Source: an uncultured Alphaproteobacteria bacterium | Lineage (GTDB): Bacteria > Pseudomonadota > Alphaproteobacteria > HIMB59 > GCA-002718135 | Reading direction: 5' to 3' | Length of the DNA stretch: 64,000 bases | Assembly: GCA_902602515.1 (NCBI GenBank) | Contig: CACKRG010000004.1 | Coordinates: 2,405 to 66,404 of the forward strand | Notes under the pieces: model-generated | Told to the model about the DNA's origin: nothing | Seen by the model: the letters and a program-made list of their open reading frames with translations, nothing else | The model's database searches: none | Shown here: in pieces, positions 1 to 30,412 of the stretch | How positions within the stretch are numbered: position 1 is the first letter of the stretch | Layout of the letters: each line of letters begins with the position of its first letter | Position numbers and translations under genes: made by a program

Positions 1-720
1 ATTATGGAGTTAGGTGGTAAATCACCACAAATTATATTCAAAGATGCTGATTTAACTTTATCAGTAAATGGAGTTGTGTCAGGTATATTTCCAGTTTCAG
101 GCCATAGTTGTATTTCAGGATCAAGGATACTAGTGCATAAAGATATAAAAGATAAATTTACTAATAGTTTATTAGAAGTTGTTAAAAAGGCTAAAGTTGG
201 TCACCCAAATGATACTGCAACACAAATAGGACCTATAGCAAATAAAGAGCAATATGAATTTATTTTATCTAAGATAGAAGCGGCTGAAAAAAGAGGTTTA
301 AAATTATTAATTGATGGAAGAAAAGAACAAAAGTCTGAAGGATACTATATTGGACCAACAATTTTTGATAATGTTCCAAATGAAGATGATTTAGCTCAAA
401 ATGAAGTATTTGGACCTATTGCCTCAATACAAACTTGGGAAGATGAAGATGAAGTAATTAAAATTGCAAACGATACTATTTATGGGCTTGCAGCAGGCAT
501 TTGGACTAAGGATACTAATAAAGCTATTCGTTTAGCGGATAAGATAGAGGCTGGAACTGTTTATATAAATAATTATTTTAATGCTTCTACTCAATCACCA
601 GTTGGAGGCTTCAAGCAATCAGGATATGGTCGTGAAAATGGATGGGAAGGGATGCAAAGTTACATGCAGACTAAATCTACTTGGCTAGCTACCAATCCAT
701 TTCAACCAAACCCATTTTAA
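1..720 (+). CDS. Aldehyde dehydrogenase family protein, C-terminal ~239 aa (5' end outside window)
   Basis: Frame is open to position 1. ELGGKSP, EVFGPI and PVGGFKQSGYGRE motifs are typical of the NAD(P)-dependent ALDH superfamily. Confidence 0.85.
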   Translation: MMELGGKSPQIIFKDADLTLSVNGVVSGIFPVSGHSCISGSRILVHKDIKDKFTNSLLEVVKKAKVGHPNDTATQIGPIANKEQYEFILSKIEAAEKRGLKLLIDGRKEQKSEGYYIGPTIFDNVPNEDDLAQNEVFGPIASIQTWEDEDEVIKIANDTIYGLAAGIWTKDTNKAIRLADKIEAGTVYINNYFNASTQSPVGGFKQSGYGRENGWEGMQSYMQTKSTWLATNPFQPNPF

Positions 721-727
721 GAAGTAA

Positions 728-1519
728 TTATTCTTTCCAATTTGGTTCTCTTTTTTCTAAAAAAGCTTCAATACCTTCCTTGGAATCATCATGTAACATG
801 TTCTCAGTCATTACCTTTGAAGTAAAAGTATATGCATCTTCTAAATTCATATCTTTTTGTTTGTAAAAAGCTTCTTTACCAATTTTAATAGTATTAGAAG
901 ATTTAGACGATATTTTTTTAGCAATTTGAAATACATTTTCTTTTAAACTATCTTCTTCAAAGACATCATTTATTAAACCAATCCTTAATGCTTTATTTGC
1001 ATCTATAAGATCCCCAGTGAGAAGCATTTCCATTGCTTGCTTTTTACCTACAGTTCTTGATAACGGAACCATTGGTGTAGAACAAAATAATCCAATATTA
1101 ACACCAGGAGTTGCATATTTTGCTCTACTACTTGAGTAAGCTAAATCACAGCTAGAAATTAACTGACAGCCTGCTGCAGTAGCAATACCATCAACCATAG
1201 CTATAACTGGTTTATTATTTTTATTAATTTTCAGCATAAGATGAGAGCACATTTGAAATATTTTTTTAAAATAGCTTTCGCCTTTATCATTTTGTAATCT
1301 TTGTAAATTTAAATCTTTTAAATTATGTCCTGCACAAAAAATATTACCTTTTGATGATAATATAATTACTTTTATATCATTATCTTTATCAGCAATATCT
1401 AGTGCTAATGTTAATTCGTTGATCATGTTTTCACTTAAAGTATTTTGGTTTTCTTGGTCATTAAGAATAATATTAAAAATATTATTATTTTTTTTAGTTA
1501 ATATTAGTTTAAAATTCAT
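728..1519 (-). CDS. Enoyl-CoA hydratase/isomerase (crotonase superfamily)
   Basis: 263 aa. VIILSSKGNIFCAGHNLKDL and MVDGIATAAGCQL oxyanion-hole-type motifs. Start codon abuts the stop of the upstream OsmC-like gene (1519/1520). Confidence 0.85.
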   Translation of the reverse strand: MNFKLILTKKNNNIFNIILNDQENQNTLSENMINELTLALDIADKDNDIKVIILSSKGNIFCAGHNLKDLNLQRLQNDKGESYFKKIFQMCSHLMLKINKNNKPVIAMVDGIATAAGCQLISSCDLAYSSSRAKYATPGVNIGLFCSTPMVPLSRTVGKKQAMEMLLTGDLIDANKALRIGLINDVFEEDSLKENVFQIAKKISSKSSNTIKIGKEAFYKQKDMNLEDAYTFTSKVMTENMLHDDSKEGIEAFLEKREPNWKE

Positions 1520-1966
1520 TTAATTGATTTGAATTTCAACATCTTTAGATAGTGAATTAGCGATAAAACAATACTTATGTGATCTATCTTTCATCTTTTT
1601 CATTTCTTCGTCAGAAATATTAAAATTATCTTCAAATACTATAGCTGGATTTAGTTCTATTTTGTTGACGTACATTCTTCCTTCTGCATTTTTTCCTAAA
1701 TACGAAATTGCTTTATCTTTATAATTAATTACTGGCCATTTCATTTTTGCAGCTAACGCTAAGAATGTCATCATAAAACAACTACTTACAGCTGCAGCTA
1801 GTTTTTGTTCTGGATTAATATTAGTTTCGCTTCCTCCATAATCTGGAGATGATCCCGCATCAATAGATACATTTTCATTAAGCATTATTGTGTGATCAGT
1901 TAAGTATTTTCCAAATTCGAGTTTTTGATCTCCTAATTCCCATTTTAATTCGATTGAATGACTCAT
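1520..1966 (-). CDS. OsmC/Ohr-family peroxiredoxin-like protein
   Basis: Trimmed to ATG at 1966 (MSHSIELKW...), because the longer track ORF overlaps the upstream gene. Two conserved Cys contexts (VSSCFMMTF and HKYCFIANS) are typical of the OsmC family. Confidence 0.8.
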   Translation of the reverse strand: MSHSIELKWELGDQKLEFGKYLTDHTIMLNENVSIDAGSSPDYGGSETNINPEQKLAAAVSSCFMMTFLALAAKMKWPVINYKDKAISYLGKNAEGRMYVNKIELNPAIVFEDNFNISDEEMKKMKDRSHKYCFIANSLSKDVEIQIN

Positions 1967-1967
1967 T

Positions 1968-3089
1968 TTAAGAATAATTAAAAGGTAGTGAGCACACTTT
2001 ACCTTTTCTCTCAATATTGTCTGGTGTTAATACGATAACATCCTGCCCATCATTCCAATAATCTCTATCAACCATTGATAGCCCAATATTGGTTTTTAAA
2101 AATGGTGAATAAATACCAGAGGTGATATTACCAATTTGAAATCTATTTTTTGAGTATACAGGAAAAGGTATTGTGCACGGAGGAGTCGGTGACCCATCAA
2201 AAGTAATTCCTTTTATTTTTTTTTCTATTCCATTTTTTAATATTTTTTTTAGTGCATTTTTTCCAATAAAATCATGAGATAAATTGTTACAATAATTATC
2301 AAATCCACATTCAATTGGATTATTTTCTAAAGTAAATTCATTGCCATAGGATAATAAACCGCCTTCTATTCTATCAATTAAATTAGGACATCCAGGTGAA
2401 ATATTAAAATTTTTTCCTGCTTCCCAAATAATTTCCCAAAGTTTTTTTCCTAAACTAAAACCTTTAAGATAAATCTCAAAACCGTCTTGTTTGCTATATC
2501 CTGATCTTGCAATTATCTGCTTTGTGCCTTCAAACTCAAAAAAAGTAAAATGAAAGAATTTTAATTTTTTTATTTTTTCACCAAATATTGAAGACATTAA
2601 TTCTTCAGATTTCGGACCTTGAATTGCTAGGGGATAAACATCTGGTTCAATAATATCAACTTTAAAATTTCTTCCTACAGCCAAACCTTTTGCCCAAAGA
2701 AGAACATCTGAATCTGCAACTGATAGCCAATATTTATTTTCACTTAATTTTAAAAGAACGGGATCATTTATCATTCCTGCATTTTCATCAATCATTGGAT
2801 AATAGTAACACTTACCAATAGGCATATCTTTTATTGACCTTGGAGACATGAGTTGTATTAATTTTGAAGCATCTTCTCCTATTATTTGAACCTGTCGTTG
2901 ACATGAAACATCCCAAATTTGAGTATTTTTAGATAAGTGCCAATAATCTTCATCTACTGTTGCTTTATATGATTTTGGAAGAAGCATATGATTAACTACA
3001 GTAAAACCACTTACACCAGCCTCAATAACTTTCTCGGTATAAGGAGTCCTCCTAATACGTCTAGACATGTTTAATCCTGAATTACTCAT
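1968..3089 (-). CDS. dmdA: GcvT-family (aminomethyltransferase-fold) THF-dependent demethylase, DmdA-like (DMSP demethylase candidate)
   Basis: 373 aa from ATG 3089 (CAT at 3087-3089). SRRIRRTPY near the N-terminus, VVNHMLLP, WDVSCQRQV, ARSGYSKQDGFEIY and PNLIDRIEGGLLSYGNE match my memory of DmdA rather than the canonical glycine-cleavage T protein. Size is close to known DmdA. Not verified by search. Confidence 0.6.
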   Translation of the reverse strand: MSNSGLNMSRRIRRTPYTEKVIEAGVSGFTVVNHMLLPKSYKATVDEDYWHLSKNTQIWDVSCQRQVQIIGEDASKLIQLMSPRSIKDMPIGKCYYYPMIDENAGMINDPVLLKLSENKYWLSVADSDVLLWAKGLAVGRNFKVDIIEPDVYPLAIQGPKSEELMSSIFGEKIKKLKFFHFTFFEFEGTKQIIARSGYSKQDGFEIYLKGFSLGKKLWEIIWEAGKNFNISPGCPNLIDRIEGGLLSYGNEFTLENNPIECGFDNYCNNLSHDFIGKNALKKILKNGIEKKIKGITFDGSPTPPCTIPFPVYSKNRFQIGNITSGIYSPFLKTNIGLSMVDRDYWNDGQDVIVLTPDNIERKGKVCSLPFNYS

Positions 3090-3090
3090 T

Positions 3091-3426
3091 TTATTTAGAC
3101 CACCATATTGAGTATCCATTTGGAGAAATAATCAAAGGTATGTGGTATTTTTTGAGAGGATCTTTCATTTTAAATTTAACACTTATTAAATTAATTATTT
3201 CACTAGTATTTCCAAAATATTTACCAGAATTAATTATCATTTCATAATCACTTTCACAATCTTCTTTCGTTAATTCAAATTCTTTAAGCATTCTTCCAGA
3301 GCTATCTGTTTTATCTTCTAGAAATACAACTTTATTATTTTTATTTACTTTATAAATAACAATTTCTACATCACTTGCATGCGTACCATCTATTGAGTTT
3401 AGTAAATGTGTAGAAAAAAATGCCAT
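3091..3426 (-). CDS. Transthyretin-like protein (5-hydroxyisourate hydrolase family fold) with atypical C-terminus
   Basis: 111 aa. N-terminal STHLLN..G and C-terminal YHIPLIISPNGYS match TLP/HIUase family blocks. The terminal tetrapeptide is WWSK instead of the HIUase signature YRGS. Confidence 0.7.
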   Translation of the reverse strand: MAFFSTHLLNSIDGTHASDVEIVIYKVNKNNKVVFLEDKTDSSGRMLKEFELTKEDCESDYEMIINSGKYFGNTSEIINLISVKFKMKDPLKKYHIPLIISPNGYSIWWSK

Positions 3427-3429
3427 AAC

Positions 3430-5172
3430 CTACTCTATAGACGCTTTATCTCTTTTATCACTAACTGCAGCAACTATAGGACTTATAACACCTTTAGCTT
3501 TAACATTTACACATGCAGTTTTACCACTTTCTAGCGCTCTTTTTAAAGCGGGGCCTAAATCTTCTCTTTTAGTAACTAGTTCTCCATGTCCTCCAAAACC
3601 TTCAAAAATTGAATGAAATGGAATATCTCTAAAATCAGTTGCAAAGTGTTTCCCACTTTCAAATAACCTTTCTTGTTGCTGAGAAATACAGTCAAGACCT
3701 CCATTATTATCTATAACAACAACAATAGGTTTTTTTTCTTGAAATGCAGCTTCAATTGATAATCCGCCAGATAAAAATGCACCATCTCCACTTATTAAAA
3801 CAACATTAGATTTAGGATTAAGATTTTTTGCTGATACTGCAAAAGGAACTCCAACACCTAACATGCTGAAAGTGCCTGGATGTAATATTCCCCCAAGTTT
3901 TTTACCTTTTGATCCAGCAATATTAATTGCAATCTCGGACCAGAAATGCGTGTTACCACCATCAATAACTAACCAATCATTTTCAGTTAATACTTCTTGA
4001 ACATCTAAAGCTAATTGAAGAGGATGAATTTTTCCACCTTCTTTTTTAGCCTCTTCAGTTTCTTTATTTAAGTCGTCTAATGTTTTATTAATCCAATTTT
4101 TTTTCTCTTTTTTATTCTTATTAAACCAATCATTGTTTAATTTCCATTTACTGTTTTTCTTTAACTCTATGAGTTTATCCAAAAAAACTCCAGGATCACA
4201 GAGTAAGTTAATATCTGCAGCTCTATTTAATTCTATTTCTTCATGCGATCCATTAATACAAACAAGCTTAGTGCTTTTTGGAAAAAGTGGAGGATTGCCA
4301 AAATTCATTTGATTATCAAGACGTGCACCAATCATAAGAACCAAATCTGATTCATTGAGAGCCATTTTTGAAGGAGGATATTGATGAATATCTGCCAGAC
4401 CCATGTATGTATCTGCTTCTTCGCCTAAAAGCTTCTGATGGTATGGTATATTAAATATTGGAATGTTTAATTCAAAGCCAGCTTGCTCTAATTTTTTTTC
4501 TGCACTAGACCACCAAACACCATGCCCTCCAATAAAAACAGGTTTTTGTGCACTTATTGCCAGATCAAATATTTCATTTAATCTCTGAGGATCGGGCCAA
4601 GCTTTGGCTAAAGGTTTCTTTTGATGAGTAAAAGGCCTTTCTTCTAAACCTGCATCATCTGCAAATGATGAAAACATTATATCTACTGGTACACTTAAAT
4701 GTACTGCACCAGGATAGCCATTTGTTGCAATTCTATATGCTTTATCTACGAACTCTCTTATTCTGTTGCCATCTGTTATACTTGCACTGTATTTTGTTAA
4801 CGGTGCTGCAATAGATACATCATCAATTTCCTTAAAACCGCCTGCTCCTTGTCTTTTTAAGCTACTTGATCCAGTTATAAAAATTACAGGTGATCTTTCA
4901 CCCCAAGCTTCCATCATTGAAGGTACAGCATTTGCAAAACCTTCTGGTCCAACAATACAAACAGATGGTTTTCTTGATATTCTTGTATGGCCATCAGCTA
5001 AATGACCAGCAATTTGTTCATGAGGACAATTAATTACATTAATTTGACACTCCATAAATCCTTCGAGTGCTGGATTACAAAAACCTCCAGAAAGTGTAAA
5101 AACATTATCAACCCCTTTATCCTTGAGAGCTCTTGCCACTAATGCTCCACCTCTAATCTTTTTATCTCTCAT
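3430..5172 (-). CDS. Thiamine-diphosphate-dependent enzyme (acetolactate synthase / 2-oxoacid decarboxylase-like family)
   Basis: 580 aa. N-terminal GGALVARALKDKGVDNVFTLSGG (Pyr domain) and C-terminal GDGAFLSGGLSIEAA...NNGG ThDP-binding motif. Confidence 0.85.
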   Translation of the reverse strand: MRDKKIRGGALVARALKDKGVDNVFTLSGGFCNPALEGFMECQINVINCPHEQIAGHLADGHTRISRKPSVCIVGPEGFANAVPSMMEAWGERSPVIFITGSSSLKRQGAGGFKEIDDVSIAAPLTKYSASITDGNRIREFVDKAYRIATNGYPGAVHLSVPVDIMFSSFADDAGLEERPFTHQKKPLAKAWPDPQRLNEIFDLAISAQKPVFIGGHGVWWSSAEKKLEQAGFELNIPIFNIPYHQKLLGEEADTYMGLADIHQYPPSKMALNESDLVLMIGARLDNQMNFGNPPLFPKSTKLVCINGSHEEIELNRAADINLLCDPGVFLDKLIELKKNSKWKLNNDWFNKNKKEKKNWINKTLDDLNKETEEAKKEGGKIHPLQLALDVQEVLTENDWLVIDGGNTHFWSEIAINIAGSKGKKLGGILHPGTFSMLGVGVPFAVSAKNLNPKSNVVLISGDGAFLSGGLSIEAAFQEKKPIVVVIDNNGGLDCISQQQERLFESGKHFATDFRDIPFHSIFEGFGGHGELVTKREDLGPALKRALESGKTACVNVKAKGVISPIVAAVSDKRDKASIE

Positions 5173-5173
5173 C

Positions 5174-6337
5174 TTAATACTTTATATCCTTAAAAATTTT
5201 CTCTGCTATAATTTTTTTATCAACTTCATTTATATCGGTTAATCCTACTAAGCCAAGATTCGTACTTAACTCCTCTTTAATTAAGTTGATAATTCTTCGA
5301 AGACCTCTCGCACCATCGGCACCAATGGCGTACATTAAAGGTCTGCCAAACATAACAAAATCAGCTCCTAGAGCTAATGCACGTAAAATATCACTACCAC
5401 TTCTAATGCCACTATCAAAAAGTATTGGAAAATCATCTCCTAAAGCTTTTCTAATTAATGGTAAGGCATTAATAGAAGCAGTAGCACTGTCTAATTGCCT
5501 TCCTCCATGATTAGATACTTGAATTGCATCAGCACCAGCCTCTTTAATTTTTAAGGCATCTTCAGAATTCATTACTCCTTTTATTATTAATTTCCCCTTC
5601 CATGCTTTTCGAATTCTTTTTAGAGTATTCCAATCAGTTGATCCTCTACTTTCTTTTCGTCTAAAAACTTTATCACCGCTTTTAGAGGTAATATAATTCA
5701 TTGGTTGCGGAGCTCCTTTTAATAAAGTCGTTAAACTCCATTGAGGATGTAGTGCAAAATCTAAAAATTGTTTTGGACCTATTTTAAATGGATAACCAAA
5801 ACCATTTCTGTCATCTCTTGCTCTTCTTGAAAGAATAGGTACATCAACAGTAAGAATTAAAACTTTGTATCCAATATTTTCTGCCCTTTTTAATAATTCC
5901 ATAATAAATTCTTCACTTTGAAAAATATATATTTGCATCCACGAATGACCCTCTGAAAAGGTAAACATATCTTCAAGTGTTGTGCTAGATGCCATTGAAA
6001 CACATGTTGGAACATTATTATAAGCACTCTCTTTTGCTATCATTTTATCTGCTTCAGGCCATGAAAGATTTGTCATTCCCATTGGAGCAAACCCAAATGG
6101 ATAATCAAATTGAAAATCAAATATTTTTTTACTTAAATTTCTATTCTCGACATTTCTGAAAACCTTAGGCTCAAGTCTAATTTGATCTAATGCTGTACTA
6201 TTAATTTCTGCAAGTTTATCATCTCCTGATGCTCCATCAATAAAATCAAAGACTAATTTTGGTAATCTTTTTTTAGATAATCTTATTGCATCATCTATTG
6301 TATGGATTTTCGTGCTTGGTTTAATGAGATCATTCAT
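5174..6337 (-). CDS. FMN-dependent alpha-hydroxy-acid dehydrogenase/oxidase (LldD / glycolate oxidase / MdlB family)
   Basis: 387 aa. VSNHGGRQLD active-site motif and DSGIRSGSDILRALALGA. The start is 1 nt from the downstream ThDP gene. Confidence 0.85.
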   Translation of the reverse strand: MNDLIKPSTKIHTIDDAIRLSKKRLPKLVFDFIDGASGDDKLAEINSTALDQIRLEPKVFRNVENRNLSKKIFDFQFDYPFGFAPMGMTNLSWPEADKMIAKESAYNNVPTCVSMASSTTLEDMFTFSEGHSWMQIYIFQSEEFIMELLKRAENIGYKVLILTVDVPILSRRARDDRNGFGYPFKIGPKQFLDFALHPQWSLTTLLKGAPQPMNYITSKSGDKVFRRKESRGSTDWNTLKRIRKAWKGKLIIKGVMNSEDALKIKEAGADAIQVSNHGGRQLDSATASINALPLIRKALGDDFPILFDSGIRSGSDILRALALGADFVMFGRPLMYAIGADGARGLRRIINLIKEELSTNLGLVGLTDINEVDKKIIAEKIFKDIKY

Positions 6338-6385
6338 TTTAATATTTGTATTCTAATATAATTTATAATTCTATTACATAATATA

Positions 6386-7615: not shown

Positions 7616-7660
7616 AAATAAACAATATTTTATGTAACATAAATAAAATAAAAAAAACTT

Positions 7661-8584: not shown

Positions 8585-8607
8585 TATTGAAAATTTAATA
8601 AAAATAT

Positions 8608-8629
8608 GTGGCGCAATTTTTTGCGCCAC
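8608..8629 (-). terminator. Intrinsic terminator/attenuator hairpin between the SBP gene and the downstream methyltransferase gene
   Basis: GTGGCGCAA-TTTT-TTGCGCCAC is a perfect 9-bp GC-rich stem. On the minus strand it is followed by AUAUUUUUAUU. Confidence 0.5.
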
Positions 8630-8645
8630 AAAAAAAACTAGAGGT

Positions 8646-10274: not shown

Positions 10275-10290
10275 TTGTCCTCCCTTTTAT

Positions 10291-10331
10291 TGAACAAAAA
10301 CCTGTGTTTTTGTTCATAATTTCTAGAAATT
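10291..10331. promoter_or_regulatory. Two adjacent perfect palindromes in the divergent SBP/permease control region
   Basis: TGAACAAAAAC-ctgt-GTTTTTGTTCA (10291-10316) and AATTTCTAGAAATT (10318-10331). They lie 17 nt upstream of the SBP start codon. Confidence 0.4.
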
Positions 10332-10465
10332 TAACAAAAAACAAACTTAAGTTAATTAACATACAAACATATAAATTATTTAAATTCAACGGATAATTTG
10401 TGAAATTTAGGTTGCATAATGGCCTAATTAAGTAATAACAAAATTAAAATATATAGGAGGATAAT

Positions 10466-11464
10466 ATTAGCCAAATTCACCCAATATTTAGAACAATTTT
10501 TTTACGAATTGGTCTTGGATTAATTACTGTATTTGCTTTTTCAGTAATTATTTTTAGTTGCTTCTCTTTTTTGCCAGGAGATTTTGCAACTGAGATTCTC
10601 GGACAATCAGCTACAAAATCCTCTGTAGAGGCGCTCAGATCAGAATTAGGCTTAGATAAACATCCCATTCCAAGATATTTTGAATGGCTATCTAATGTAT
10701 TTCAAGGAGATTTTGGAAGTTCTTTCTCAGGTAGATCTAAAGTACAAGGTGATCAAGGAGATAGATCAAGACTTGTTGTTGAACTAATAATTCCCAGGCT
10801 TAAAAATACACTCTTTTTAACTGGAGTTAGTGCTCTAGTGGCTATTCCGCTAGCATTGCTACTTGGTATTTCAGCTGCATTATACAGAAATAGTGTTTAC
10901 GACAGATCGGCTACTGGTTTTAGTTTAGTTACTGTTTCTTCTCCAGAGTTTTTTACTGGGTATATTTTTATACTTTTATTAGCTACCTTATTTCCAGTTT
11001 TTCCTACAATAGCAAATGTTAATGAAGACACATCATTAATTGATAGGTTTTATTTAACTGCTTTACCAGTTTTTACTTTAACGCTTGTAACAATGGGTCA
11101 TATGATGAGGATGACTCGGTCAGCAATAATAAATATTTTATCTAGTGAATATATTGAAATGGCAAAATTATCTGGTGCTTCCAGATATGAAGTAATTGTA
11201 AAACATGCTTTACCTAATGCTTGGGCTCCAATTGCTCAAGTCATAACTATTAATCTTGCTTATATGTTAATTGGCTCAGTTGTTGTTGAGTTTGTATTTA
11301 ATTATCAAGGAATTGGAAGACTAATGGTTGGGTCCGTTTATAATAGAGACATTCCAGTTGTTCAGGCTTGCGCCTTAATATTTGCATCGACTTATGTTAT
11401 TTTAAATCTACTAGCTGATTTAATTGGCATAATTTCAAACCCTAGACTTTTATATCCAAAATGA
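10466..11464 (+). CDS. ABC transporter permease (DppB/OppB-like), probable ATT start
   Basis: The track ORF starts at TTG 10571, inside the conserved LPGD block. The frame is open back to 10457 and encodes a typical DppB N-terminal TM helix (IFLRIGLGLITVFAFSVIIFSCFSFLPGDFA). AGGAGG at 10455-10460 sits 5 nt before ATT 10466. There is no in-frame ATG/GTG/TTG in between. Confidence 0.75.
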   Translation: MSQIHPIFRTIFLRIGLGLITVFAFSVIIFSCFSFLPGDFATEILGQSATKSSVEALRSELGLDKHPIPRYFEWLSNVFQGDFGSSFSGRSKVQGDQGDRSRLVVELIIPRLKNTLFLTGVSALVAIPLALLLGISAALYRNSVYDRSATGFSLVTVSSPEFFTGYIFILLLATLFPVFPTIANVNEDTSLIDRFYLTALPVFTLTLVTMGHMMRMTRSAIINILSSEYIEMAKLSGASRYEVIVKHALPNAWAPIAQVITINLAYMLIGSVVVEFVFNYQGIGRLMVGSVYNRDIPVVQACALIFASTYVILNLLADLIGIISNPRLLYPK

Positions 11465-12384
11465 GTGATAGTACACAATCATATTCAGCAAAAGGTGAAG
11501 TTAGTAACATAACTAAAAGAAGAACTAGATTTGAAAGAATAAAAATTGCATTTTCTAAAGCTCCCTTATCTGCTTGGTTTGGAATGATTGTACTTTCTAT
11601 CTATCTTTTTGCTGCATTCTTTGCTCCATTTATTGCACCACATGGTGAAGCAGAAGTTTTCCCAGTTGCGTACGCGCCATGGGGTGGAGAACACTTATTG
11701 GGAACAGATCAAATAGGAAGAGACATTCTCTCTAGATTAATCTTTGCTTCAAGAAATACACTAGGAATTTGTTTTTTAGCTTGTTCCATTGCTTTAATTA
11801 TAGGAACAATATTTGGAATAATTGCAGCAATAGATAGAAGTTATATTGATCAAATCTTAAGCAGATCAATTGATACTTTAATGGCAATTCCTGTAATGAT
11901 TTTTACTTTTATTCTTTTATCAGTTTTTGGACCAAGTAATTTGAATTTAATTTTAATTTTAGGGGTATTAGAATCTACAAGATTTTTTAGAATTTCAAGA
12001 TCTGTAGCTGTTGGTCAAGTTGTATTAGAATATGTTGAGGTAGCTAAATTAAGAGGAGAAAAACTTTCATATATTATTTTTAGAGAAATTCTTCCTAATA
12101 TAGCATCCCCTTTGATAGTTGAATTCGGAGTAAGATTTATTTTTATTATTTTTACAGTTTCAAGTTTAAGCTTTTTAGGTTTAGGAATACAGCCACCAGC
12201 AGCGGATTGGGCTGCTATGGTGAGAGAAAATGCAATATTAATTCAATATGCCCAATATGATATTACTGCAGGATTAACCCCACTAATTCCTGCTGCAATA
12301 ATTGCATTATTAGCTCTTGCAATTAACTTCGTAATTGATTGGTATTTATACATTACAAGCGGTTTAAAAGATGACATCAAATAA
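11461..12384 (+). CDS. ABC transporter permease (DppC/OppC-like)
   Basis: 307 aa. ATGA overlap with the upstream permease. HLLGTDQIGRDILSRL block and EAA-type loop. Confidence 0.85.
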   Translation: MSDSTQSYSAKGEVSNITKRRTRFERIKIAFSKAPLSAWFGMIVLSIYLFAAFFAPFIAPHGEAEVFPVAYAPWGGEHLLGTDQIGRDILSRLIFASRNTLGICFLACSIALIIGTIFGIIAAIDRSYIDQILSRSIDTLMAIPVMIFTFILLSVFGPSNLNLILILGVLESTRFFRISRSVAVGQVVLEYVEVAKLRGEKLSYIIFREILPNIASPLIVEFGVRFIFIIFTVSSLSFLGLGIQPPAADWAAMVRENAILIQYAQYDITAGLTPLIPAAIIALLALAINFVIDWYLYITSGLKDDIK

Positions 12385-13984
12385 TAAAAAAGAACTTCTT
12401 TTAAAAATGAAGAATATTCATATTGATGGATTTTCAGATGAGAGATGGCATAAAATATTAAAAGGTGTAGATCTAAATTTATACAGAGGTGAGATTTTAG
12501 GTTTAATTGGAGAAAGTGGTGCTGGAAAATCAACTATGGGAAAAGCTGCTATGGGTTATACTCAACCAGGTTGTAAAATTATTAAAGGTGAAATAATTTT
12601 TAATGGTAAAGATCTTGCTAAGCTCACAGAATTTGAAAAAAGAAAAATCTGGGGTACTAAAATTTCATATGTTGCACAATCTGCAGCAGCATCTTTTAAT
12701 CCTGCACACAGATTAATGGAACAAACTATTAGTGCAGCAAATAGGGCAAAAATAAATCCTACTGACGTGTTAAGAAAAGATGCAGTCCAACTTTATGAAT
12801 CACTACAACTACCAGATGCTGAAAATATTGGAGAGAGATATCCCCATCAAGTTTCTGGTGGTCAATTACAAAGAATTATGACTGCTATGGCTATGTCGCC
12901 AAGACCAGAACTTATAATTTTTGATGAACCAACAACTGCCCTTGATGTTACTACTCAAGTTGAAGTTCTGTCTGCTATGAGATCAATAGTAGATAAATTT
13001 AATACTGCTGCAATTTATATTACGCATGATTTAGCTGTAGTTGCTCAAATGGCTGATAGAATTAAGGTTCTTAGATATGGAGAAGAAGTTGAAGAGTCTG
13101 AAACAAGAGAGATGCTATCAAATCCTAAAGAAGAATATACCAAATCACTATGGTCAGTAAGATCACTAATCAAGCCTGAAGAAACAAACGATGATTATAT
13201 GTTGTCCATTAAAAATATTGATGCAGCTTATGGCTCATCAAAAGTTTTGCATGATGTTTCTGTTAATATTCCTAGAGGTAAAACTGTAGCAATAGTTGGA
13301 GAAAGTGGATCAGGAAAATCAACAACTGCTAGAGTAATAACAGGGCTACTACCTCAAACCAAAGGAGAAATTATTTTTGATGGAAAAAAATTATCTCCTA
13401 AACTTGAGCAAAGATCAAAAGAAGAATTAAGAAGAATTCAAATAATTTTTCAAATGCCTGATACCGCAATGAATCCTAAACAAACTGTTGATGAAATTAT
13501 TGGAAGACCAATTGAATTTTACCATGGAGTAAAAGGAAAAGAACGTGAAACTAAAGTAATTGAGTTGTTAAAAATGATTGAACTAGATGAAACGTTTTTA
13601 GATAGATTGCCATCTGAATTATCAGGAGGCCAAAAACAAAGAATTTGTATAGCTAGAGCTTTAGCCGCTAATCCAGATCTAATTATTTGTGATGAGGTTA
13701 CTTCAGCATTGGATCAAATTGTTCAAGAAGGAATTTTAAAACTGTTACAAAAACTTCAAAAAGATCTTGGTGTAACTTATATTTTTATAACTCACGATAT
13801 TGCCACCGTTAAAGCCATTTCGGATGAAATAGTTGTTATGTATCAAGGTAAAGTAGTTGAGCAAGGCTTAAAAAGTAAAATTTTAAACCCTCCACACCCT
13901 GATTATACTGAGTTGTTATTATCTTCAGTTCCAGAAATGGATCCTGATTGGCTAACAAATCTTTTAAATAAAAGATCAAGCTAA
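12371..13984 (+). CDS. Fused double ABC ATPase (DppD/DppF-like)
   Basis: 537 aa with two Walker A motifs (GESGAGKST, GESGSGKST) and two signature motifs (VSGGQLQR, LSGGQKQR). Confidence 0.9.
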   Translation: MTSNNKKELLLKMKNIHIDGFSDERWHKILKGVDLNLYRGEILGLIGESGAGKSTMGKAAMGYTQPGCKIIKGEIIFNGKDLAKLTEFEKRKIWGTKISYVAQSAAASFNPAHRLMEQTISAANRAKINPTDVLRKDAVQLYESLQLPDAENIGERYPHQVSGGQLQRIMTAMAMSPRPELIIFDEPTTALDVTTQVEVLSAMRSIVDKFNTAAIYITHDLAVVAQMADRIKVLRYGEEVEESETREMLSNPKEEYTKSLWSVRSLIKPEETNDDYMLSIKNIDAAYGSSKVLHDVSVNIPRGKTVAIVGESGSGKSTTARVITGLLPQTKGEIIFDGKKLSPKLEQRSKEELRRIQIIFQMPDTAMNPKQTVDEIIGRPIEFYHGVKGKERETKVIELLKMIELDETFLDRLPSELSGGQKQRICIARALAANPDLIICDEVTSALDQIVQEGILKLLQKLQKDLGVTYIFITHDIATVKAISDEIVVMYQGKVVEQGLKSKILNPPHPDYTELLLSSVPEMDPDWLTNLLNKRSS

Positions 13985-14038
13985 TTAATCTAATTAAAAA
14001 TACTTGAAAATATTTTAAATTTATTATTTAAATTTTTT

Positions 14039-14881
14039 GTGAAAAAAATTTCTAAATTAGATGAGTATTTATTTGATCTTAATGGATACTTAATTATTAA
14101 AAATGCTTTAAGTAAAAAAGAACTTATTAATTTAAATAAAATTTTGGATGATTTAAAAAACTTAGGTAATAAACAGTGGGCCGGTCATGTTCATGGTCAT
14201 AATTACGGAGGTAAGGAGGGCTTAAATCTTCAACAAATTTATGAAGCAGGAAAGCCTTTTGAAAATTTAATTGACCATCCTTCATGGATTAATCACATGT
14301 TACATTTTGTAGGAGGTAAAGACTCTTTTGACCACACTCATGGTCCATTATTTATTGATGAGAACTTTGCAAATATTAGAGGCCCAGGTGAGGCTATCGG
14401 CATACATTCTGGCAACCATGAAGGCCTACAAAGAAATCATTATAGATTTCAAAATGGAAAATTTCATTGTGCACAAGTAAATATTTTATTAGCTTTGAAT
14501 GATATTGGTCCAGGTGATGGTGGAACTGTTGTAATACCTGCATCACATAAATCTAACATAGAGCATCCAGAATTTAGAGAAAACAAAATGTTAAAAGGTG
14601 GTAAAGTATCATCAGCAGATGGAATGACTGCATCTTTTGAGGTTCATTTAAAAGCAGGTGATGGACTTTTATTTGTAGACTCATTATGTCATGGTTCAGC
14701 AAAAAGAGTTAATAATGGAGAAAGAAGAATTGTTGTATATAGGTATGGACCTTCTTGGGGATTTTTTCGTCACCCGTATCGCCCATCAGCTCAATTACTT
14801 AAAAGATTATCTAAGTTCCAAAAAAGTATTGTGATGCCTCATGAAAAGGTTTTAACTCCTTCTAATAAAAATTCTTGTTGA
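14039..14881 (+). CDS. Phytanoyl-CoA dioxygenase (PhyH)-family Fe(II)/2-oxoglutarate oxygenase-like protein, atypical metal motif
   Basis: 280 aa, GTG start. LLALNDIGPGDGGTVVIPASHKS and GDGLLFVDSLCHGS...RR blocks are typical of PF05721. No HxD/E lies upstream of the ALND block. Confidence 0.7.
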   Translation: MKKISKLDEYLFDLNGYLIIKNALSKKELINLNKILDDLKNLGNKQWAGHVHGHNYGGKEGLNLQQIYEAGKPFENLIDHPSWINHMLHFVGGKDSFDHTHGPLFIDENFANIRGPGEAIGIHSGNHEGLQRNHYRFQNGKFHCAQVNILLALNDIGPGDGGTVVIPASHKSNIEHPEFRENKMLKGGKVSSADGMTASFEVHLKAGDGLLFVDSLCHGSAKRVNNGERRIVVYRYGPSWGFFRHPYRPSAQLLKRLSKFQKSIVMPHEKVLTPSNKNSC

Positions 14882-15147
14882 TTGTGAATATAATTAAATC
14901 AATTTTAAATATTTTTCTAAGTAAAGAGAGCAAATTTAATAATCTTGAGGCAAGAAATATAATGATAGATGAAAGCGACTTTAATAAAATGAATTTAACA
15001 TTAGGAAATACTTTTAAAGTTAACGGAAATATCAAAATTAAAAATTTTAAAGAAAAAATTACAGAAGATAATCTAACGGTAGTAGTTATTAATAATAAAG
15101 GTAAAACAATTGGCTATATTACCAAAAATGAATTAATTAATAATTAA
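14875..15147 (+). CDS. Small hypothetical protein (start uncertain: TTG 14875, GTG 14884 or internal ATG)
   Basis: 90-aa ORF that exactly fills the gap between the PhyH-like and SDR genes on the same strand. The C-terminal VVVINNKGKTIGYITKNELI weakly resembles a CBS-type strand-helix. No recognisable family. Confidence 0.35.
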   Translation: MLIVNIIKSILNIFLSKESKFNNLEARNIMIDESDFNKMNLTLGNTFKVNGNIKIKNFKEKITEDNLTVVVINNKGKTIGYITKNELINN

Positions 15148-15152
15148 ATTTT

Positions 15153-15929
15153 ATGAAAATAAATTTGAAAAATAAAACTTATGTAATCTCAGCTGGTGCA
15201 GATGGTATAGGTTTTGCAATTGCTAAAAAGATTATCAGCGCAGGTGGAAAAGTATATGTTTCTGATATTAACAAAAAAAAAGTTAATGAAATAAATAAAA
15301 AATATAAGAATAAAATTTATGCAACCGCTATGGATTGTACAAATCCAGCTGAAATTAAAAATTATTTTCATAAAATAAAATCTCTAAAAAAAATTGATGG
15401 TCTAATAAATAACATAGGAATAGCAGGTCCAACCAAAAGTCTCGAAAATATAAAAATCGAAGAATGGGAAGAGACTATAAAGACAAACTTACATAGTCAT
15501 TTTTATTATACAAAGTATTCTATTCCATTCTTAAAAAAAGCAAAAAAATCATCAATAATTAACCTTTCTTCTACTGCGGGACTTTATGGTTTTGCTCAAC
15601 GTTCTCCTTATACTGCTAGTAAATGGGCAATAATAGGTCTGACCAAAACTTTAGCAATGGAACTTGGTAAATATAAAATTAGAGTTAACGCAATTTGTCC
15701 TGGATCAGTAGAGGGAGATCGAATGAAACGAGTAGTTGATGCTAAAGCTTTATTAACAAAAACTAATCCCAAAAAAGTAAAACAAGAGTTTGAATCAATG
15801 GTATCTCTACAAACATTTGTTAATAAAGAAGATATTGCTTCAATGGCTTTATTTTTATTAAGTGATGAATGTCAGAATATTTCTGGTCAGGCCATGACAG
15901 TAGATGGAAATACTGAAAGAATGAATTAG
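15153..15929 (+). CDS. Short-chain dehydrogenase/reductase (SDR)
   Basis: 258 aa. SAGADGIG cofactor motif, NNIG, catalytic YTASKWA (YxxxK) and a PG motif (ICPGSV). Confidence 0.85.
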   Translation: MKINLKNKTYVISAGADGIGFAIAKKIISAGGKVYVSDINKKKVNEINKKYKNKIYATAMDCTNPAEIKNYFHKIKSLKKIDGLINNIGIAGPTKSLENIKIEEWEETIKTNLHSHFYYTKYSIPFLKKAKKSSIINLSSTAGLYGFAQRSPYTASKWAIIGLTKTLAMELGKYKIRVNAICPGSVEGDRMKRVVDAKALLTKTNPKKVKQEFESMVSLQTFVNKEDIASMALFLLSDECQNISGQAMTVDGNTERMN

Positions 15930-17521
15930 TGTCTCAACACACTGATTATATAATAATTGGTGCTGGTTCAGCTGGTTGTGTATTAGCAAATAGACTATCA
16001 TCCTATTCAAAAAATAATGTAACTTTATTTGAAGCTGGCCCCTCTAATAATACATGGAAGGTTGATATGCCAAGTGCATTACTTTATGTAATGCATGACC
16101 CAAAATACAATTGGAAATATTATACTGAGCCTGAACCTTATTTAAATAACAGATCTTTATATTGCCCTAGAGGTAAAATGTTAGGTGGTTGCTCCTCCCA
16201 TAATGGAATGGTTTTTGCAAGGGGGCACAAGGAGGATTTTGATAGATGGGAGTCTTATGGTTTAGATCAATGGTGCTATAGTAAAGTTTTACCATATTAT
16301 AAAAAACTAGAAACATGGTCTGGGAAAAATAGTCTAAGAGGCAACAATGGTCCGTTAAAAGTAAATAAATCGCAAATAGATAAAAAGTTTCCGTTATTTA
16401 ATGCAGTTTTAAAAGCTGCAAAAGAAGCTGGCTATAATATCTTTGATGATTCAAATAGTCTTAATAATGAAGGATTTGGTACATTTGATGTAACAATTGA
16501 TAAAGGTGTTCGGCAAAGTATACCAAAAGCTTATTTAGATCCTATAAAGAATAGAAAAAATCTCCAAATAATAAAAAAAACATATGTAAAAAAAATAATT
16601 TTTAAAGACAAGGTTGCAATAGGAATAGAATATGTAAAAAATAATAAAACACATTATTTTTATGCAAATAAAGAAGTAATACTTAGTGCAGGTTCAATCA
16701 ATTCGCCAAAAATACTTCAACTCTCAGGAATAGGTAATGCTGCACATCTTAAGGATTTTGGAATTCCCATAATTAATGATTTGAAAGGAGTTGGAGAAAA
16801 TCTTCAAGATCACTTAGAAATTTATATTCAATACAAATCAAAGAAAAAAGAAACATTATATGATTTATCAACTAATTTTATTTCTCAGGCTATTGAAGGA
16901 AGTAAATGGTTTACTTTCAACAAAGGTAAATTAGCTCATTCACATTTAGAGATAGGAGGTTTTGTAAAATCAAATAAAAATTATTCACATCCAAATTTGC
17001 AATTTCATTTTTTTCCATCATTAGTAATCAATCATGGATTAATAAATCCTGAATTTGATGCTTTTCAATTTCACGCATGTCCTAACAGGCCAAAGAGTAG
17101 GGGATTTGTTAGAATAAAATCAAATGATTTTAATATATCACCTCAAATCCAATTTAATTACTTACAAAATCAAGAGGATTTAATTCAAATGAGAGAAAGC
17201 GTAAAAATAGCAAAAAATATTTGTGCCCAGAAATCACTCTTAGATTATGTAGATTACGAAGTAAGACCAGGAATTGATATAAAATCTAATGAAGAATTAG
17301 ATGAAGTTATTAGAAATACTTCTGAATCAGCATATCACCCCTCTTGTACTAATAAAATGGGAAATGATGATTATTCAGTTGTTGATCAAAAAACAAAAGT
17401 ACATGGTATTGAGAACTTAAGAGTTATAGATGCATCAATTATGCCTGATATTGTTAGCGCAAATTTAAATGCTAGTGTAGTGATGATCGCAGAAAGGGCA
17501 GCTGATATTTTACTAGATTAA
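15929..17521 (+). CDS. GMC-family FAD oxidoreductase (choline dehydrogenase BetA-like)
   Basis: 530 aa. DYIIIGAGSAGCVLANRLS N-terminal FAD motif, GGCSSHNGM, and C-terminal HPSCTNKMG...VHGIENLRVIDASIMP. GTG start overlaps the SDR stop (TAGTG). Confidence 0.9.
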   Translation: MSQHTDYIIIGAGSAGCVLANRLSSYSKNNVTLFEAGPSNNTWKVDMPSALLYVMHDPKYNWKYYTEPEPYLNNRSLYCPRGKMLGGCSSHNGMVFARGHKEDFDRWESYGLDQWCYSKVLPYYKKLETWSGKNSLRGNNGPLKVNKSQIDKKFPLFNAVLKAAKEAGYNIFDDSNSLNNEGFGTFDVTIDKGVRQSIPKAYLDPIKNRKNLQIIKKTYVKKIIFKDKVAIGIEYVKNNKTHYFYANKEVILSAGSINSPKILQLSGIGNAAHLKDFGIPIINDLKGVGENLQDHLEIYIQYKSKKKETLYDLSTNFISQAIEGSKWFTFNKGKLAHSHLEIGGFVKSNKNYSHPNLQFHFFPSLVINHGLINPEFDAFQFHACPNRPKSRGFVRIKSNDFNISPQIQFNYLQNQEDLIQMRESVKIAKNICAQKSLLDYVDYEVRPGIDIKSNEELDEVIRNTSESAYHPSCTNKMGNDDYSVVDQKTKVHGIENLRVIDASIMPDIVSANLNASVVMIAERAADILLD

Positions 17522-17528
17522 TATAAAG

Positions 17529-17552
17529 ACTTAGGCCGTTTCTAGCCTAAGT
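17529..17552. terminator. Hairpin usable as a bidirectional terminator (GMC gene on +, 59-aa ORF on -)
   Basis: aCTTAGGC-cgtttcta-GCCTAAGt is an 8-bp stem. It is followed on + by TATATTTCTGTTATTT and starts 8 nt after the GMC stop codon. Confidence 0.45.
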
Positions 17553-20363: not shown

Positions 20364-20365
20364 AT

Positions 20366-21295: not shown

Positions 21296-21296
21296 A

Positions 21297-22187: not shown

Positions 22188-22229
22188 TTTTTTAATCTAC
22201 TAGTATATTTATAATTATAAAAGAAAATT

Positions 22230-25127: not shown

Positions 25128-25167
25128 TTTATTTTATTTAATGTATTTTTTATTTAGGAGGGGAATA

Positions 25168-26214: not shown

Positions 26215-26230
26215 AAAATATACTTCATTT

Positions 26231-26262
26231 CAGCACTAATATATTAATATTAGTGCTGTTTT
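26231..26262 (+). terminator. Intra-operon hairpin (attenuator/terminator) between the SBP and ATPase genes
   Basis: CAGCACTAATAT-atta-ATATTAGTGCTG is a perfect 12-bp stem followed by TTTT. It lies 17 nt after the potF stop and ends 4 nt before the potG ATG. Confidence 0.5.
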
Positions 26263-26265
26263 AAG

Positions 26266-30362: not shown

Positions 30363-30412
30363 ATTGAGAGTGTTTGTTTACTAATTATAATTAAACCATT
30401 ATTGATAAGTAG

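Follow-up and report, generated by a model that had tools for sequence, protein, structure and literature searches.

Why does a gene of the family that demethylates dimethylsulfoniopropionate (DMSP) stand, in SAR11 bacteria, directly behind genes for a hydroxy-acid dehydrogenase, a thiamine diphosphate (ThDP) enzyme and a transthyretin-like protein, and what could the four products do together? The gene of this family, dmdA, is the standard marker for the main fate of marine DMSP. The question is raised by a stretch of 64,000 nucleotides (the window in what follows; positions 2,405 to 66,404 of contig CACKRG010000004.1, assembly GCA_902602515.1) from an uncultured alphaproteobacterium, which has a G+C content of about 29% and whose nearest relatives are single-cell and metagenome genomes of the Pelagibacterales. 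At its left end, an initial annotation made from the letters alone had read 16 genes as one "supercluster" serving a single pathway. These genes are not a unit; they are a mosaic around a four-gene core, with a periphery that is specific to the clade. The conserved heart of the region is a catabolic operon on the minus strand (1968–6337), here called the cassette, in which the genes for a flavin mononucleotide (FMN)-dependent dehydrogenase, a ThDP enzyme, a transthyretin-like protein and a DmdA-family tetrahydrofolate (THF) methyltransferase follow one another. Its members belong to known superfamilies, but the cassette is undescribed as a unit. The initial annotation had known of no bacterial pathway of this kind, and a literature search combining SAR11 or dmdA with the cassette's enzyme types, or with catabolism of 4-dimethylsulfonio-2-hydroxybutyrate (DMSHB), likewise found no description of the operon.

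The proteins of the window were assigned with Pfam and NCBIfam profile searches, and gene starts were checked by alignment to relatives (Table 1). The ThDP protein was scanned against species-representative genomes, which gave at least 600 stretches and at least 555 confirmed relatives, and all window proteins were mapped onto the best 80 loci (the basis of the 80-locus counts for SAR11 below). The genes for the ThDP enzyme, the transthyretin-like protein and DmdA are contiguous in all 80 loci, and in 77 of them the FMN dehydrogenase gene comes immediately before; in the remaining three the contig breaks off at this point. The bearers of the cassette include cultured Pelagibacter strains (HIMB1709, HIMB1695 and Uisw_090), and its abundance in marine metagenomes is very high, with thousands of near-identical ThDP sequences recovered. 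The SAR11 loci fall into two groups. In the window's own clade (L001–L032), the ThDP enzymes are 95–98% identical to that of the window, and the cassette is preceded by genes for a family-5 solute-binding protein (SBP), a homocysteine S-methyltransferase family protein and a second GcvT-fold protein (GcvT2) and followed by those for OsmC, crotonase and aldehyde dehydrogenase (ALDH). In the Pelagibacteraceae, with ThDP enzymes 81–87% identical, a different Dpp-type importer is encoded on the other strand, then come GcvT2, an S51 peptidase and the cassette, and downstream of it, as in Pelagibacter Ia, a thiolase gene with or without one for a class IV aminotransferase.

To look beyond SAR11, a library clustered at 50% identity was searched with the window ThDP protein; further searches used its 48% representative and then the Pelagibius orthologue. 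For the window protein, only three full-length representatives stood above the generic level of 30–33%, at 68%, 48% and 36% identity. True orthologues were found in Pelagibius (72% identical to the window protein), Rhizobiaceae, Hyphomicrobiaceae, Arenicellales and other Gammaproteobacteria. The order FMN dehydrogenase, ThDP enzyme, transthyretin-like protein and DmdA recurs in Pelagibius (L081), together with a TRAP transporter and a LysR regulator; in Arenicellales (L082, L085 and L086), with a D-2-hydroxy-acid dehydrogenase gene (2-Hacid_dh) just upstream; in L083, with a Dpp-type ABC importer directly upstream; in a metagenome-assembled genome of the Rhizobiaceae (L088), with a LysR regulator and a divergent acyl-CoA synthetase; and in a gammaproteobacterium (L092), alone amid housekeeping genes. 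The first three genes occur without dmdA in L084, where the TRAP and LysR genes are kept; at the position of DmdA (12179–13318) this locus encodes a 379-amino-acid protein whose N-terminus is signal-like and which matches no family of Pfam or NCBIfam. The ThDP and transthyretin-like genes alone occur with convergent glcDEF-like genes (L087 and L090), behind three TauD genes and ahead of one for a formate dehydrogenase (L089), and with a cupin (L091). Three lineages have orthologous LysR regulators (64–79% identical), and the L083 importer is orthologous to that of Pelagibacter Ia (SBP 59%, permease 58% and ATPase 56% identical). The cassette is modular, because the ThDP and transthyretin-like genes are always present as an invariant pair, the FMN dehydrogenase and DmdA genes usually, and the importers are swapped between TRAP and either of two Dpp-type ABC systems. 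Gene order is thus kept well outside this genome, which agrees with the functional link that the initial annotation had drawn between the FMN dehydrogenase, the ThDP enzyme and the DmdA-like protein. The 48% representative (P0123) was not counted as evidence, being a paralogue whose surroundings (SDR, thioesterase, E1 alpha/beta) are unrelated; on its contig from JGI metagenome 3300056388 it sits in an SDR–ThDP–4HBT thioesterase–E1 alpha/beta operon, a second use of the ThDP lineage. A search of 72,556 plasmids returned a best match to the ThDP enzyme of 30% identity and hence no orthologue, a result that is undecisive for Rhizobium and Labrenzia.

The first cassette gene encodes a 2-hydroxy-acid dehydrogenase whose best single-domain match in the PDB is the mandelate dehydrogenase (MDH) of P. 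putida (237 bits). The protein aligns over its full length, membrane-loop segment included, with MDH structure 6BFG. It retains the catalytic residues of PF01070, namely the equivalents of Tyr131, Arg165, His274 and Arg277 (MDH numbering) and the lysine, and its motifs WMQIY, SRRARD, IKG and SNHGGRQLD match those of MDH and are invariant in 74 sequences. The carboxylate-contacting Tyr26 (Tyr24 of glycolate oxidase) is replaced by Phe in the window and in all SAR11 copies; outside SAR11 the position holds Phe or, in one copy, Ala, so that Tyr is found in no cassette copy. The protein scores below every NCBIfam cutoff (NF033901 LldD, 231 vs 550; NF008398, 275 vs 376; TIGR02708, 163 vs 646). In L047 (about 1000–3160), tandem FMN dehydrogenase genes, 60% and 73% identical to the window protein, lie upstream of the ThDP gene as a local duplication.

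The ThDP enzyme is the most conserved cassette protein (81–98% identical across SAR11) and defines a narrow new family. The initial annotation had taken it for a mandelate-type enzyme; its best PDB matches, at 164–189 bits, are instead 2-hydroxyacyl-CoA lyase (HACL), oxalyl-CoA decarboxylase (OXC) and benzaldehyde lyase (BAL). Benzoylformate decarboxylase was rejected as its identity, no such chain being among the 60 best of 66 PDB matches. Acetolactate synthase (ALS) models are all missed (NF004516, the best NCBIfam score, 271 vs 587; TIGR00118, 234 vs 538; AlsS, 208 vs 510), and so are those for HACL and OXC (NF058623, 243 vs 600; NF006721, 201 vs 557; TIGR03254, 187 vs 739). Neither the ThDP enzyme nor the FMN dehydrogenase falls within a family of proven specificity, every NCBIfam equivalog cutoff being missed, and the classification that the initial annotation had named as a possible objection leaves its proposal standing. 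In the enzyme ApbHACL/S, R260 and R400 bind acyl-CoA, and R156 and R276 bind ADP (PMC11271303). Carried over through an alignment to structure 8VZC, R260 corresponds to D261 and R400 to E413 of the window enzyme, R156 to Y153 (in GYPG), and R276 is retained as R284. The replacements of R260, R400 and R156, together with a C-terminal [KR]RDKASIE, are invariant from SAR11 to Gammaproteobacteria; among the non-SAR11 copies, the motif around D261, GLAD[IV]HQYPPS, occurs in 7 of 10 and THFWSE in 10 of 10. A CoA-dependent lyase is ruled out because the acyl-CoA-binding arginines R260 and R400 have given way to Asp and Glu. The loss of these arginines and the position of the gene behind that of an enzyme that makes 2-oxo acids argue for action on a free acid, and from its sequence the protein is probably a free 2-oxo-acid decarboxylase; the Asp and Glu in place of both arginines are compatible with a cationic substrate. 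Glyoxylate carboligase (Gcl) was also rejected, Gcl chains scoring 96 bits against 189 for HACL. In Gcl the canonical ThDP-activating Glu is replaced, and here it is retained (in PHEQ).

No gene accompanies the ThDP gene more faithfully than that of the transthyretin-like protein, previously regarded as a passenger: it directly follows the ThDP gene in every context, including loci without the FMN dehydrogenase and DmdA. Because this pairing is unbroken, the protein is possibly a small subunit of the ThDP enzyme or the catalyst of the next step. The active-site His, Arg and His of 5-hydroxyisourate hydrolase are retained. In all 80 SAR11 and in 10 non-SAR11 copies, W-[WYM]-[SA] stands in place of the C-terminal Y-R-G-S of that enzyme (the window tail reads YSIWWSK), and a hydrolase of this kind was rejected on the loss of Y-R-G-S and a TIGR02962 score of 69 against a cutoff of 87. 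A Trp-rich tail is a feature that would be expected for binding of an onium group.

The fourth gene had been described as a DmdA-like GcvT. Membership of the DmdA family holds, the equivalog cutoff being passed, and the gene forms a separate lineage, clade C of dmdA, at some distance from the characterised SAR11 enzyme. On NF009133, the other cassette copies score 536–580 and P. ubique DmdA 637. The window protein is 48% identical end to end to P. ubique DmdA (3TFH), and all cassette copies, including those of Pelagibacter Ia isolates, are 43–49% identical to that enzyme and 52–78% identical among themselves, as a separate orthologue group. Ratified DmdAs of SAR92 are 35–40% identical to the P. 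ubique and R. pomeroyi enzymes (PMC10746254), and the window protein thus lies within the identity range of ratified DmdAs. The clade was assigned with the subclade-specific dmdA qPCR primers of Varaljay (Table S4 of PMC6309047). In at least 14 Pelagibacteraceae loci, the cassette gene contains the sites of both C/2 primers without any mismatch (0+0); in the window the primers lie at 2765–2790 (minus strand, 2 mismatches) and 2599–2621 (plus strand, 3 mismatches) and would give a 192-bp product. Neither the D/1 nor the D/3 pair has a usable match at the cassette gene: one primer has no match (D/1) or 4–6 mismatches (D/3), and its partner 2–6. Since the C/2 primers match and the D/1 and D/3 pairs do not, the fourth cassette gene is, by its primer sites, dmdA of clade C, and as a family member its product is predicted to demethylate DMSP. 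To our knowledge, no clade-C DmdA enzyme has been assayed. Compared with the described DMSP demethylases (SAR11_0246 of P. ubique, SPO1913 of R. pomeroyi; clades A–E), the cassette gene passes the same DmdA cutoff, but wherever it was found (80 SAR11 and 5 non-SAR11 loci), it comes after the other three cassette genes and is not beside dmdB or dmdC. The dmdA locus of HTCC1062, for instance, is flanked by mhpC, fadD and mmgC (PMC3160333).

Some of the chemistry can be read from the genes with some confidence: import of an organic acid by TRAP and Dpp-type systems, membrane-linked oxidation of a 2-hydroxy acid to a 2-oxo acid, ThDP-dependent decarboxylation of the free 2-oxo acid and a DmdA-type reaction in which a sulfonium gives up a methyl group to THF. 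The substrate, the sequence of the steps and the role of the transthyretin-like protein are our inference, and the best concrete hypothesis, which we put forward tentatively, is a sulfonium 2-hydroxy-acid route from DMSHB to DMSP and on to methylmercaptopropionate. In this scheme, a zwitterionic 2-hydroxy acid with an S-methyl sulfonium group, such as DMSHB, would enter through the adjacent importer, and the membrane-type FMN dehydrogenase would oxidise it to the 2-oxo acid and pass the electrons into the respiratory chain. The ThDP enzyme, with the transthyretin-like protein as small subunit or next step, would decarboxylate the free 2-oxo acid. The aldehyde, one carbon shorter, would be oxidised to DMSP by a betaine aldehyde dehydrogenase (BADH)-type ALDH, whose gene is next door in this lineage and would be elsewhere in others, and clade-C DmdA would finally move one S-methyl group of DMSP to THF, yielding methylmercaptopropionate and 5-methyl-THF. 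DMSHB alone among the known natural compounds combines a 2-hydroxy acid with a dimethylsulfonium group. BADH-type enzymes oxidise DMSP-aldehyde. Oxidation and decarboxylation are placed before demethylation because of the gene order, the versions without DmdA and the BADH-like gene next door; L084, which lacks DmdA, fits demethylation as a last and optional step, and the D-2-hydroxy-acid dehydrogenase upstream of the Arenicellales cassettes fits entry through a chiral 2-hydroxy acid. Outside one rare enzyme, DsyGD, the enzyme for the step from DMSHB to DMSP is otherwise unidentified (PMC11306096).

Several points weigh against this scheme. No ALDH is conserved with the cassette, and the scheme assigns no reaction to the transthyretin-like protein. 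Summers et al. are said to have found in 1998 that algal 4-methylthio-2-hydroxybutyrate and DMSHB are D-enantiomers, and enzymes of PF01070 are L-specific, so that a stereochemical mismatch with algal DMSHB is likely. Pelagibacter Ia strains presumably carry clade-D dmdA as well, which makes a second DmdA seem redundant. Rfam scans found no SAM, THF or glycine riboswitch on the operon and so no mark of regulation by sulfur or one-carbon (C1) supply. Pairs of the ThDP and transthyretin-like genes without FMN dehydrogenase and DmdA stand beside glcDEF-like, TauD or cupin genes, so that the pair may act on a 2-oxo acid of a more general kind, glyoxylate or pyruvate for example.

That last point leads to a second explanation, which we consider unlikely: the cassette may handle an ordinary 2-hydroxy acid, with the FMN dehydrogenase acting on glycolate or L-lactate, the ThDP pair on glyoxylate or pyruvate by carboligation or decarboxylation (as in gcl-hyi or alsS-alsD), and the DmdA a plain DMSP demethylase co-transcribed for regulation or C1 balance. 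SAR11 bacteria are known glycolate users. The ThDP pair stands beside glcDEF-like genes for glycolate or D-2-hydroxy-acid oxidase in two genomes, glycolate being the one substrate common to FMN-type and GlcD-type oxidases; it also follows TauD/TfdA-type dioxygenases, a family able to release glyoxylate; the 2-Hacid_dh of the Arenicellales belongs to a family of hydroxypyruvate and glyoxylate reductases; and a large ThDP gene followed by a small one recalls ilvBN and alsSD. However, the Gcl and HACL scores and the Glu absent in Gcl speak for another kind of ThDP enzyme, as do the widely missed ALS and AlsS models, and the carboxylate-binding Tyr26 is absent from all cassette FMN enzymes. The coupling of dmdA (a 1-nt gap), conserved with the other three genes across orders, is left unexplained; the dedicated TRAP or Dpp-type importers and the onium-compound genes nearby also count against this explanation. 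Demethylation could also come first, with DmdA turning DMSHB into 4-methylthio-2-hydroxybutyrate, the FMN dehydrogenase oxidising this to 4-methylthio-2-oxobutyrate, and transamination to methionine or ThDP-dependent decarboxylation to methional, and then methylmercaptopropionate, serving as sulfur scavenging in SAR11 deficient in sulfate reduction. SAR11 bacteria need reduced sulfur and can use the keto analogue, and animal FMN-dependent L-2-hydroxy-acid oxidases act on the methionine hydroxy analogue. This order of events would account for a separate DmdA lineage that travels with the cassette and for the class IV aminotransferase often found two genes downstream in Pelagibacter Ia loci, but its first step is missing in L084, which has importer and regulator without DmdA, and in the loci with the pair only; DmdA is last in the gene order, most loci lack the aminotransferase, and this version, too, fails to explain what the transthyretin-like protein does. 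We therefore regard it as improbable.

The remaining probability is spread over betaine-type substrates, C1 capture and unforeseen readings. It is quite improbable that the onium group is a nitrogen one, in which case the cassette would shorten a betaine-type 2-hydroxy acid (for example, 2-hydroxylated butyrobetaine or a beta-alanine-betaine derivative) by one carbon, and GcvT-fold, PF02574 and MTTB enzymes would remove N-methyl groups. Betaine genes are recurrent neighbours (MTTB in L081, L083 and L088; a BetA-type GMC oxidoreductase, the BADH-like ALDH and a carnitine-type module in the window; a BBOX-like TauD in L082), and PhyH or TauD dioxygenases could make the 2-hydroxyl group. Conversely, conservation with the cassette does not extend to these neighbours, and the fourth gene belongs firmly to the DmdA family. 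GcvT-fold enzymes are known to pass methyl groups directly to THF only from sulfonium and aryl-methyl-ether donors, and we know of no such 2-hydroxy betaine as a common metabolite. A "glyoxylate cleavage" resembling glycine cleavage, in which the ThDP enzyme would decarboxylate glyoxylate to a ThDP-bound hydroxymethyl group and the GcvT-fold protein would convert it to methylene-THF, is very improbable: GcvT-fold domains of trimethylamine N-oxide (TMAO) demethylase and dimethylglycine oxidase do take up formaldehyde equivalents, the ThDP enzyme's nearest structural relatives process C1 units (formyl-CoA, formolase) and a formate dehydrogenase adjoins the pair in L089, but such chemistry has never been shown for a DmdA-family enzyme, the resemblance of the cassette protein to DmdA (48%) far exceeds that to any GcvT domain that captures formaldehyde, and the pair-only loci have no GcvT gene. 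Chance co-location of unrelated C1, lactate or glycolate and ALS-like genes, close to the mundane alternative that the initial annotation had allowed for, is scarcely credible. The genes for OsmC, crotonase, ALDH, the PF02574 protein, PhyH, SDR and GMC do behave as a variable neighbourhood, and for this periphery chance holds; for the core it is contradicted by the order and tight spacing kept in 77 of 80 SAR11 genomes and, where the surroundings are otherwise unrelated, in at least five lineages outside SAR11.

The cassette resembles several known systems in part. With the mandelate pathway (MdlB-MdlC-MdlD), whose logic the initial annotation had invoked, it shares a membrane-associated FMN (S)-2-hydroxy-acid dehydrogenase followed by a ThDP enzyme that acts on the 2-oxo acid; the likeness stops there, since the ThDP enzyme is not MdlC-like, the ALDH is outside the conserved set, and transthyretin-like and DmdA genes are added. 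Removal of C1 from a 2-oxygenated acid also characterises HACL/OXC and peroxisomal alpha-oxidation (PhyH-HACL1-ALDH), and a PhyH-like protein and an ALDH are encoded in the window. However, the cassette has no conserved CoA ligase or transferase, an FMN dehydrogenase that needs a free carboxylate precedes its ThDP enzyme, and PhyH is limited to the window and two sister genomes among those that extend into its region. If DMSHB is the substrate, the net conversion to DMSP would be that of the DsyD domain of DsyGD; the latter is a ureidoglycolate-lyase-like single biosynthetic domain, whereas the cassette would be an oxidative catabolic route of two or three enzymes without sequence relationship to it. 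The transthyretin-like protein has the fold and length of 5-hydroxyisourate hydrolases (PucM, HiuH), but it is always paired with a ThDP enzyme and no purine-catabolic genes lie nearby. As in ilvB-ilvN and alsS-alsD, a gene for an ALS-superfamily protein of about 580 amino acids is followed within a few nucleotides, in every context, by one for about 110–130 amino acids; unlike in those pairs, the small protein has the transthyretin fold and is not an ACT domain or acetolactate decarboxylase. The homarine operon of SAR11 (homABCDER) was rejected as an identity, its enzymes being different (flavin reductase plus oxygenase, peptidase and ALDH).

Table 1. Positions in the window of the cassette genes, their neighbours and elements of the control region (scores in bits)
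Feature	Position	Strand	Assignment and remarks
C-terminal half of BADH-like ALDH, convergent	1-720	+	Aldedh, 284; best NCBIfam match BADH
Crotonase	728-1519	-	NF006008, 364 vs cutoff 313; window's clade only
OsmC-like protein	1520-1966	-	Pfam OsmC; window's clade only
DmdA-family THF methyltransferase, clade C (dmdA C/2-like); fourth cassette gene	1968-3089	-	NF009133, 532 vs cutoff 410
Transthyretin/5-hydroxyisourate hydrolase-fold protein, W-W-S-K tail; third cassette gene	3091-3426	-	PF00576, 69
ThDP enzyme; second cassette gene	3430-5172	-	Three TPP domains (Pfam); narrow new family, most conserved cassette gene
FMN-dependent (S)-2-hydroxy-acid dehydrogenase, membrane-associated MDH/LldD type; first cassette gene	5174-6337	-	PF01070, 398
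GcvT2, second GcvT-fold protein	6386-7615	-	GCV_T, 141
Homocysteine S-methyltransferase family protein	7661-8584	-	PF02574, 130; all NCBIfam equivalogs missed
Terminator-like hairpin between SBP gene and downstream genes	8607-8630	-	Ten-pair stem, 6 GC pairs, T-rich tail
Family-5 SBP of adjacent Dpp-type ABC importer	8646-10274	-	SBP_bac_5, 226
Perfect 11-nt inverted repeat, TGAACAAAAAC-N4-GTTTTTGTTCA	10291-10316		Divergent control region between SBP and permease genes
Two permeases and fused double ATPase of the same importer, divergent	10571-13984	+	BPD_transp_1 x2; ABC_tran x2 + oligo_HPY
PhyH-like dioxygenase, 90-amino-acid ORF (no family), SDR, GMC oxidoreductase	14039-17521	+	Pfam
RamB/ScfR-type regulator	17920-19359	+	
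MDR oxidoreductase	19356-20363	-	
Carnitine-dehydrogenase-like 3HCDH protein	20366-21295	-	323, below cutoff 414
BKACE	21297-22187	-	
Thioesterase, like C-terminal part of fused carnitine dehydrogenases	22230-22697	+	

The map of open reading frames (ORFs) bears out the layout given by the initial annotation: nine on the minus strand from 10274 down to 728 and seven on the plus strand at 10571–17521, and Pfam and NCBIfam bear out each family that it named. The junctions of 0–3 nt (5174/5172, 3430/3426, 3091/3089, 1968/1966 and 1520/1519) hold with the starts supported by alignment, which for the DmdA-like gene is ATG 3089 and not 3119 and for the OsmC gene ATG 1966 and not TTG 2014, and the ALDH gene does converge on the operon, its end (720) being separated by 7 nt from that of the crotonase gene (728). 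The ORF 7661–8836 is too long for the PF02574 methyltransferase, the Pfam match beginning only at residue 93; ATG 8584 gives a protein of 307 amino acids and therefore no overlap with the SBP gene. The nine minus-strand genes probably do not form one uniform transcript, because a strong terminator-like hairpin separates the SBP gene from that of the methyltransferase. The inverted repeat in the divergent control region is a candidate operator. The SAR11 cluster contains no regulator gene despite this repeat, and the non-SAR11 cassettes have LysR genes. A bidirectional terminator-like hairpin (17529–17552) directly past the GMC gene marks the right end of the plus-strand gene set. At Rfam gathering thresholds, tRNA was the sole match in the whole window, a permissive RNA scan of 6200–10700 gave no credible match, and a promoter scan, uninformative in such AT-rich DNA, returned fewer consensus matches than shuffled sequences did.

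Around the core, the genes for OsmC, crotonase, ALDH, the PF02574 protein, PhyH, SDR and GMC lie outside the conserved unit in the 80 SAR11 loci. The importer of the window, earlier regarded as the pathway's own, is kept beside the cassette in L001–L032, and it is a different paralogue from the importer linked to the cassette elsewhere: its SBP is only 29–31% identical to the cassette-linked SBPs of Pelagibacter Ia and L083. The window SBP, the Ia-type SBP and the DctP of Pelagibius have no close solved homologue, so no ligand was deduced, and a survey of SAR11 transport proteins covered no family-5 SBP. The best NCBIfam matches of GcvT2, the C-terminal part of TMAO demethylase (183 bits) and DmdA (180 bits), fall far short of their cutoffs. 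Most SAR11 loci of both clades carry the GcvT2 gene, which L053, L079 and all non-SAR11 cassettes lack. The PF02574 gene is confined to the window's clade plus L033, L034 and L079. In sister loci with flanks 92–96% identical it is only 64–76% identical (97% in L030), and the permease genes (10571–12384) are 80–90% identical in sister genomes and 98–100% in L001, L029, L030 and L032; this allelic mosaicism suggests recombination or divergent alleles within the cluster. The PhyH-like gene (14039–14881) is present only in the window, L030 and L032. The L001 contig ends at the ATPase gene, and in the other sister loci that reach the region the ATPase gene is directly followed by the 90-amino-acid ORF and the SDR gene, an insertion/deletion polymorphism. 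The ALDH gene stands beside the cassette only in L001–L032 and is absent from Pelagibacter Ia and most non-SAR11 cassettes. A 948-nt segment without match to any window protein lies between crotonase and ALDH in L008, L009, L014, L016, L018, L025, L027 and L029. The GMC protein (15929–17521) scores 695 bits on NF002550, for the choline dehydrogenase subfamily (cutoff 605), and from these assignments GMC and ALDH may be read as an ordinary choline-to-glycine-betaine pair that flanks the cluster.

In nearly all Pelagibacteraceae loci, a gene for an S51 peptidase (dipeptidase E/cyanophycinase family) lies directly upstream of that for the FMN dehydrogenase (for instance, L046 8156–8845), a hint that an amide conjugate could be what is imported, and some of these loci also have a family-3 SBP gene on the opposite strand (L046 7372–8100). 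Farther along the window, a carnitine-type module stands beside a RamB/ScfR-type regulator (17920–22697); speculatively, carnitine-type chemistry on the algal sulfonium gonyol would give DMSP-CoA. A polyamine block follows (23275–31735), with genes for an agmatine deiminase (PAD_porph), a CN hydrolase of the N-carbamoylputrescine-amidase type, a PotD-type ABC importer, a glutamine-synthetase-like protein and a DAO-family oxidase. MTTB genes are found near the cassette in three non-SAR11 loci (L081, L083 and L088), and with PF02574, GcvT2, the BetA-like and BADH-like genes, the carnitine-type module and the BBOX-like TauD of L082 they make the surroundings of the cassettes rich in onium-compound genes. 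This agrees with the methylated-onium setting first proposed. The tendency of the cassette to sit in onium-compound islands lends circumstantial support to an onium substrate and explains why one large cluster had been seen here.

What these genes mean for SAR11 and for marine sulfur cycling centres on dmdA. Subclades C/2 and D/1 have been named the most prevalent in the sea (PMC13360808), and field studies take C/2 counts as SAR11 DMSP demethylation; in one of them C/2 grouped apart from the other dmdA subclades (PMC7370799). Because the gene is always the last in an operon with three enzyme lineages that have no assigned function, the biology behind the C/2 marker is incompletely understood, and an established biogeochemical marker is to be read differently: either the upstream pathway supplies DMSP to clade-C DmdA or the substrate of this enzyme is a relative of DMSP. 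The pathway in which clade-C dmdA takes part is probably an undescribed one for an algal sulfur compound related to DMSP. More doubtful is the full proposal that the cassette is the missing widespread route from DMSHB to DMSP, run catabolically by SAR11 and other marine bacteria, that its ThDP and transthyretin-fold proteins are a two-component decarboxylase for sulfonium 2-oxo acids, and that dmdA C/2 reports turnover of DMSHB or another DMSP relative; were it true, part of the ocean's "DMSP demethylation potential" would be mis-assigned. The question of DMSHB decarboxylation becomes testable in cultured SAR11 strains that bear the cassette and with R. pomeroyi as a host without the activity, and the pairing of a ThDP enzyme with a transthyretin-fold protein is of enzymological interest whatever its substrate.

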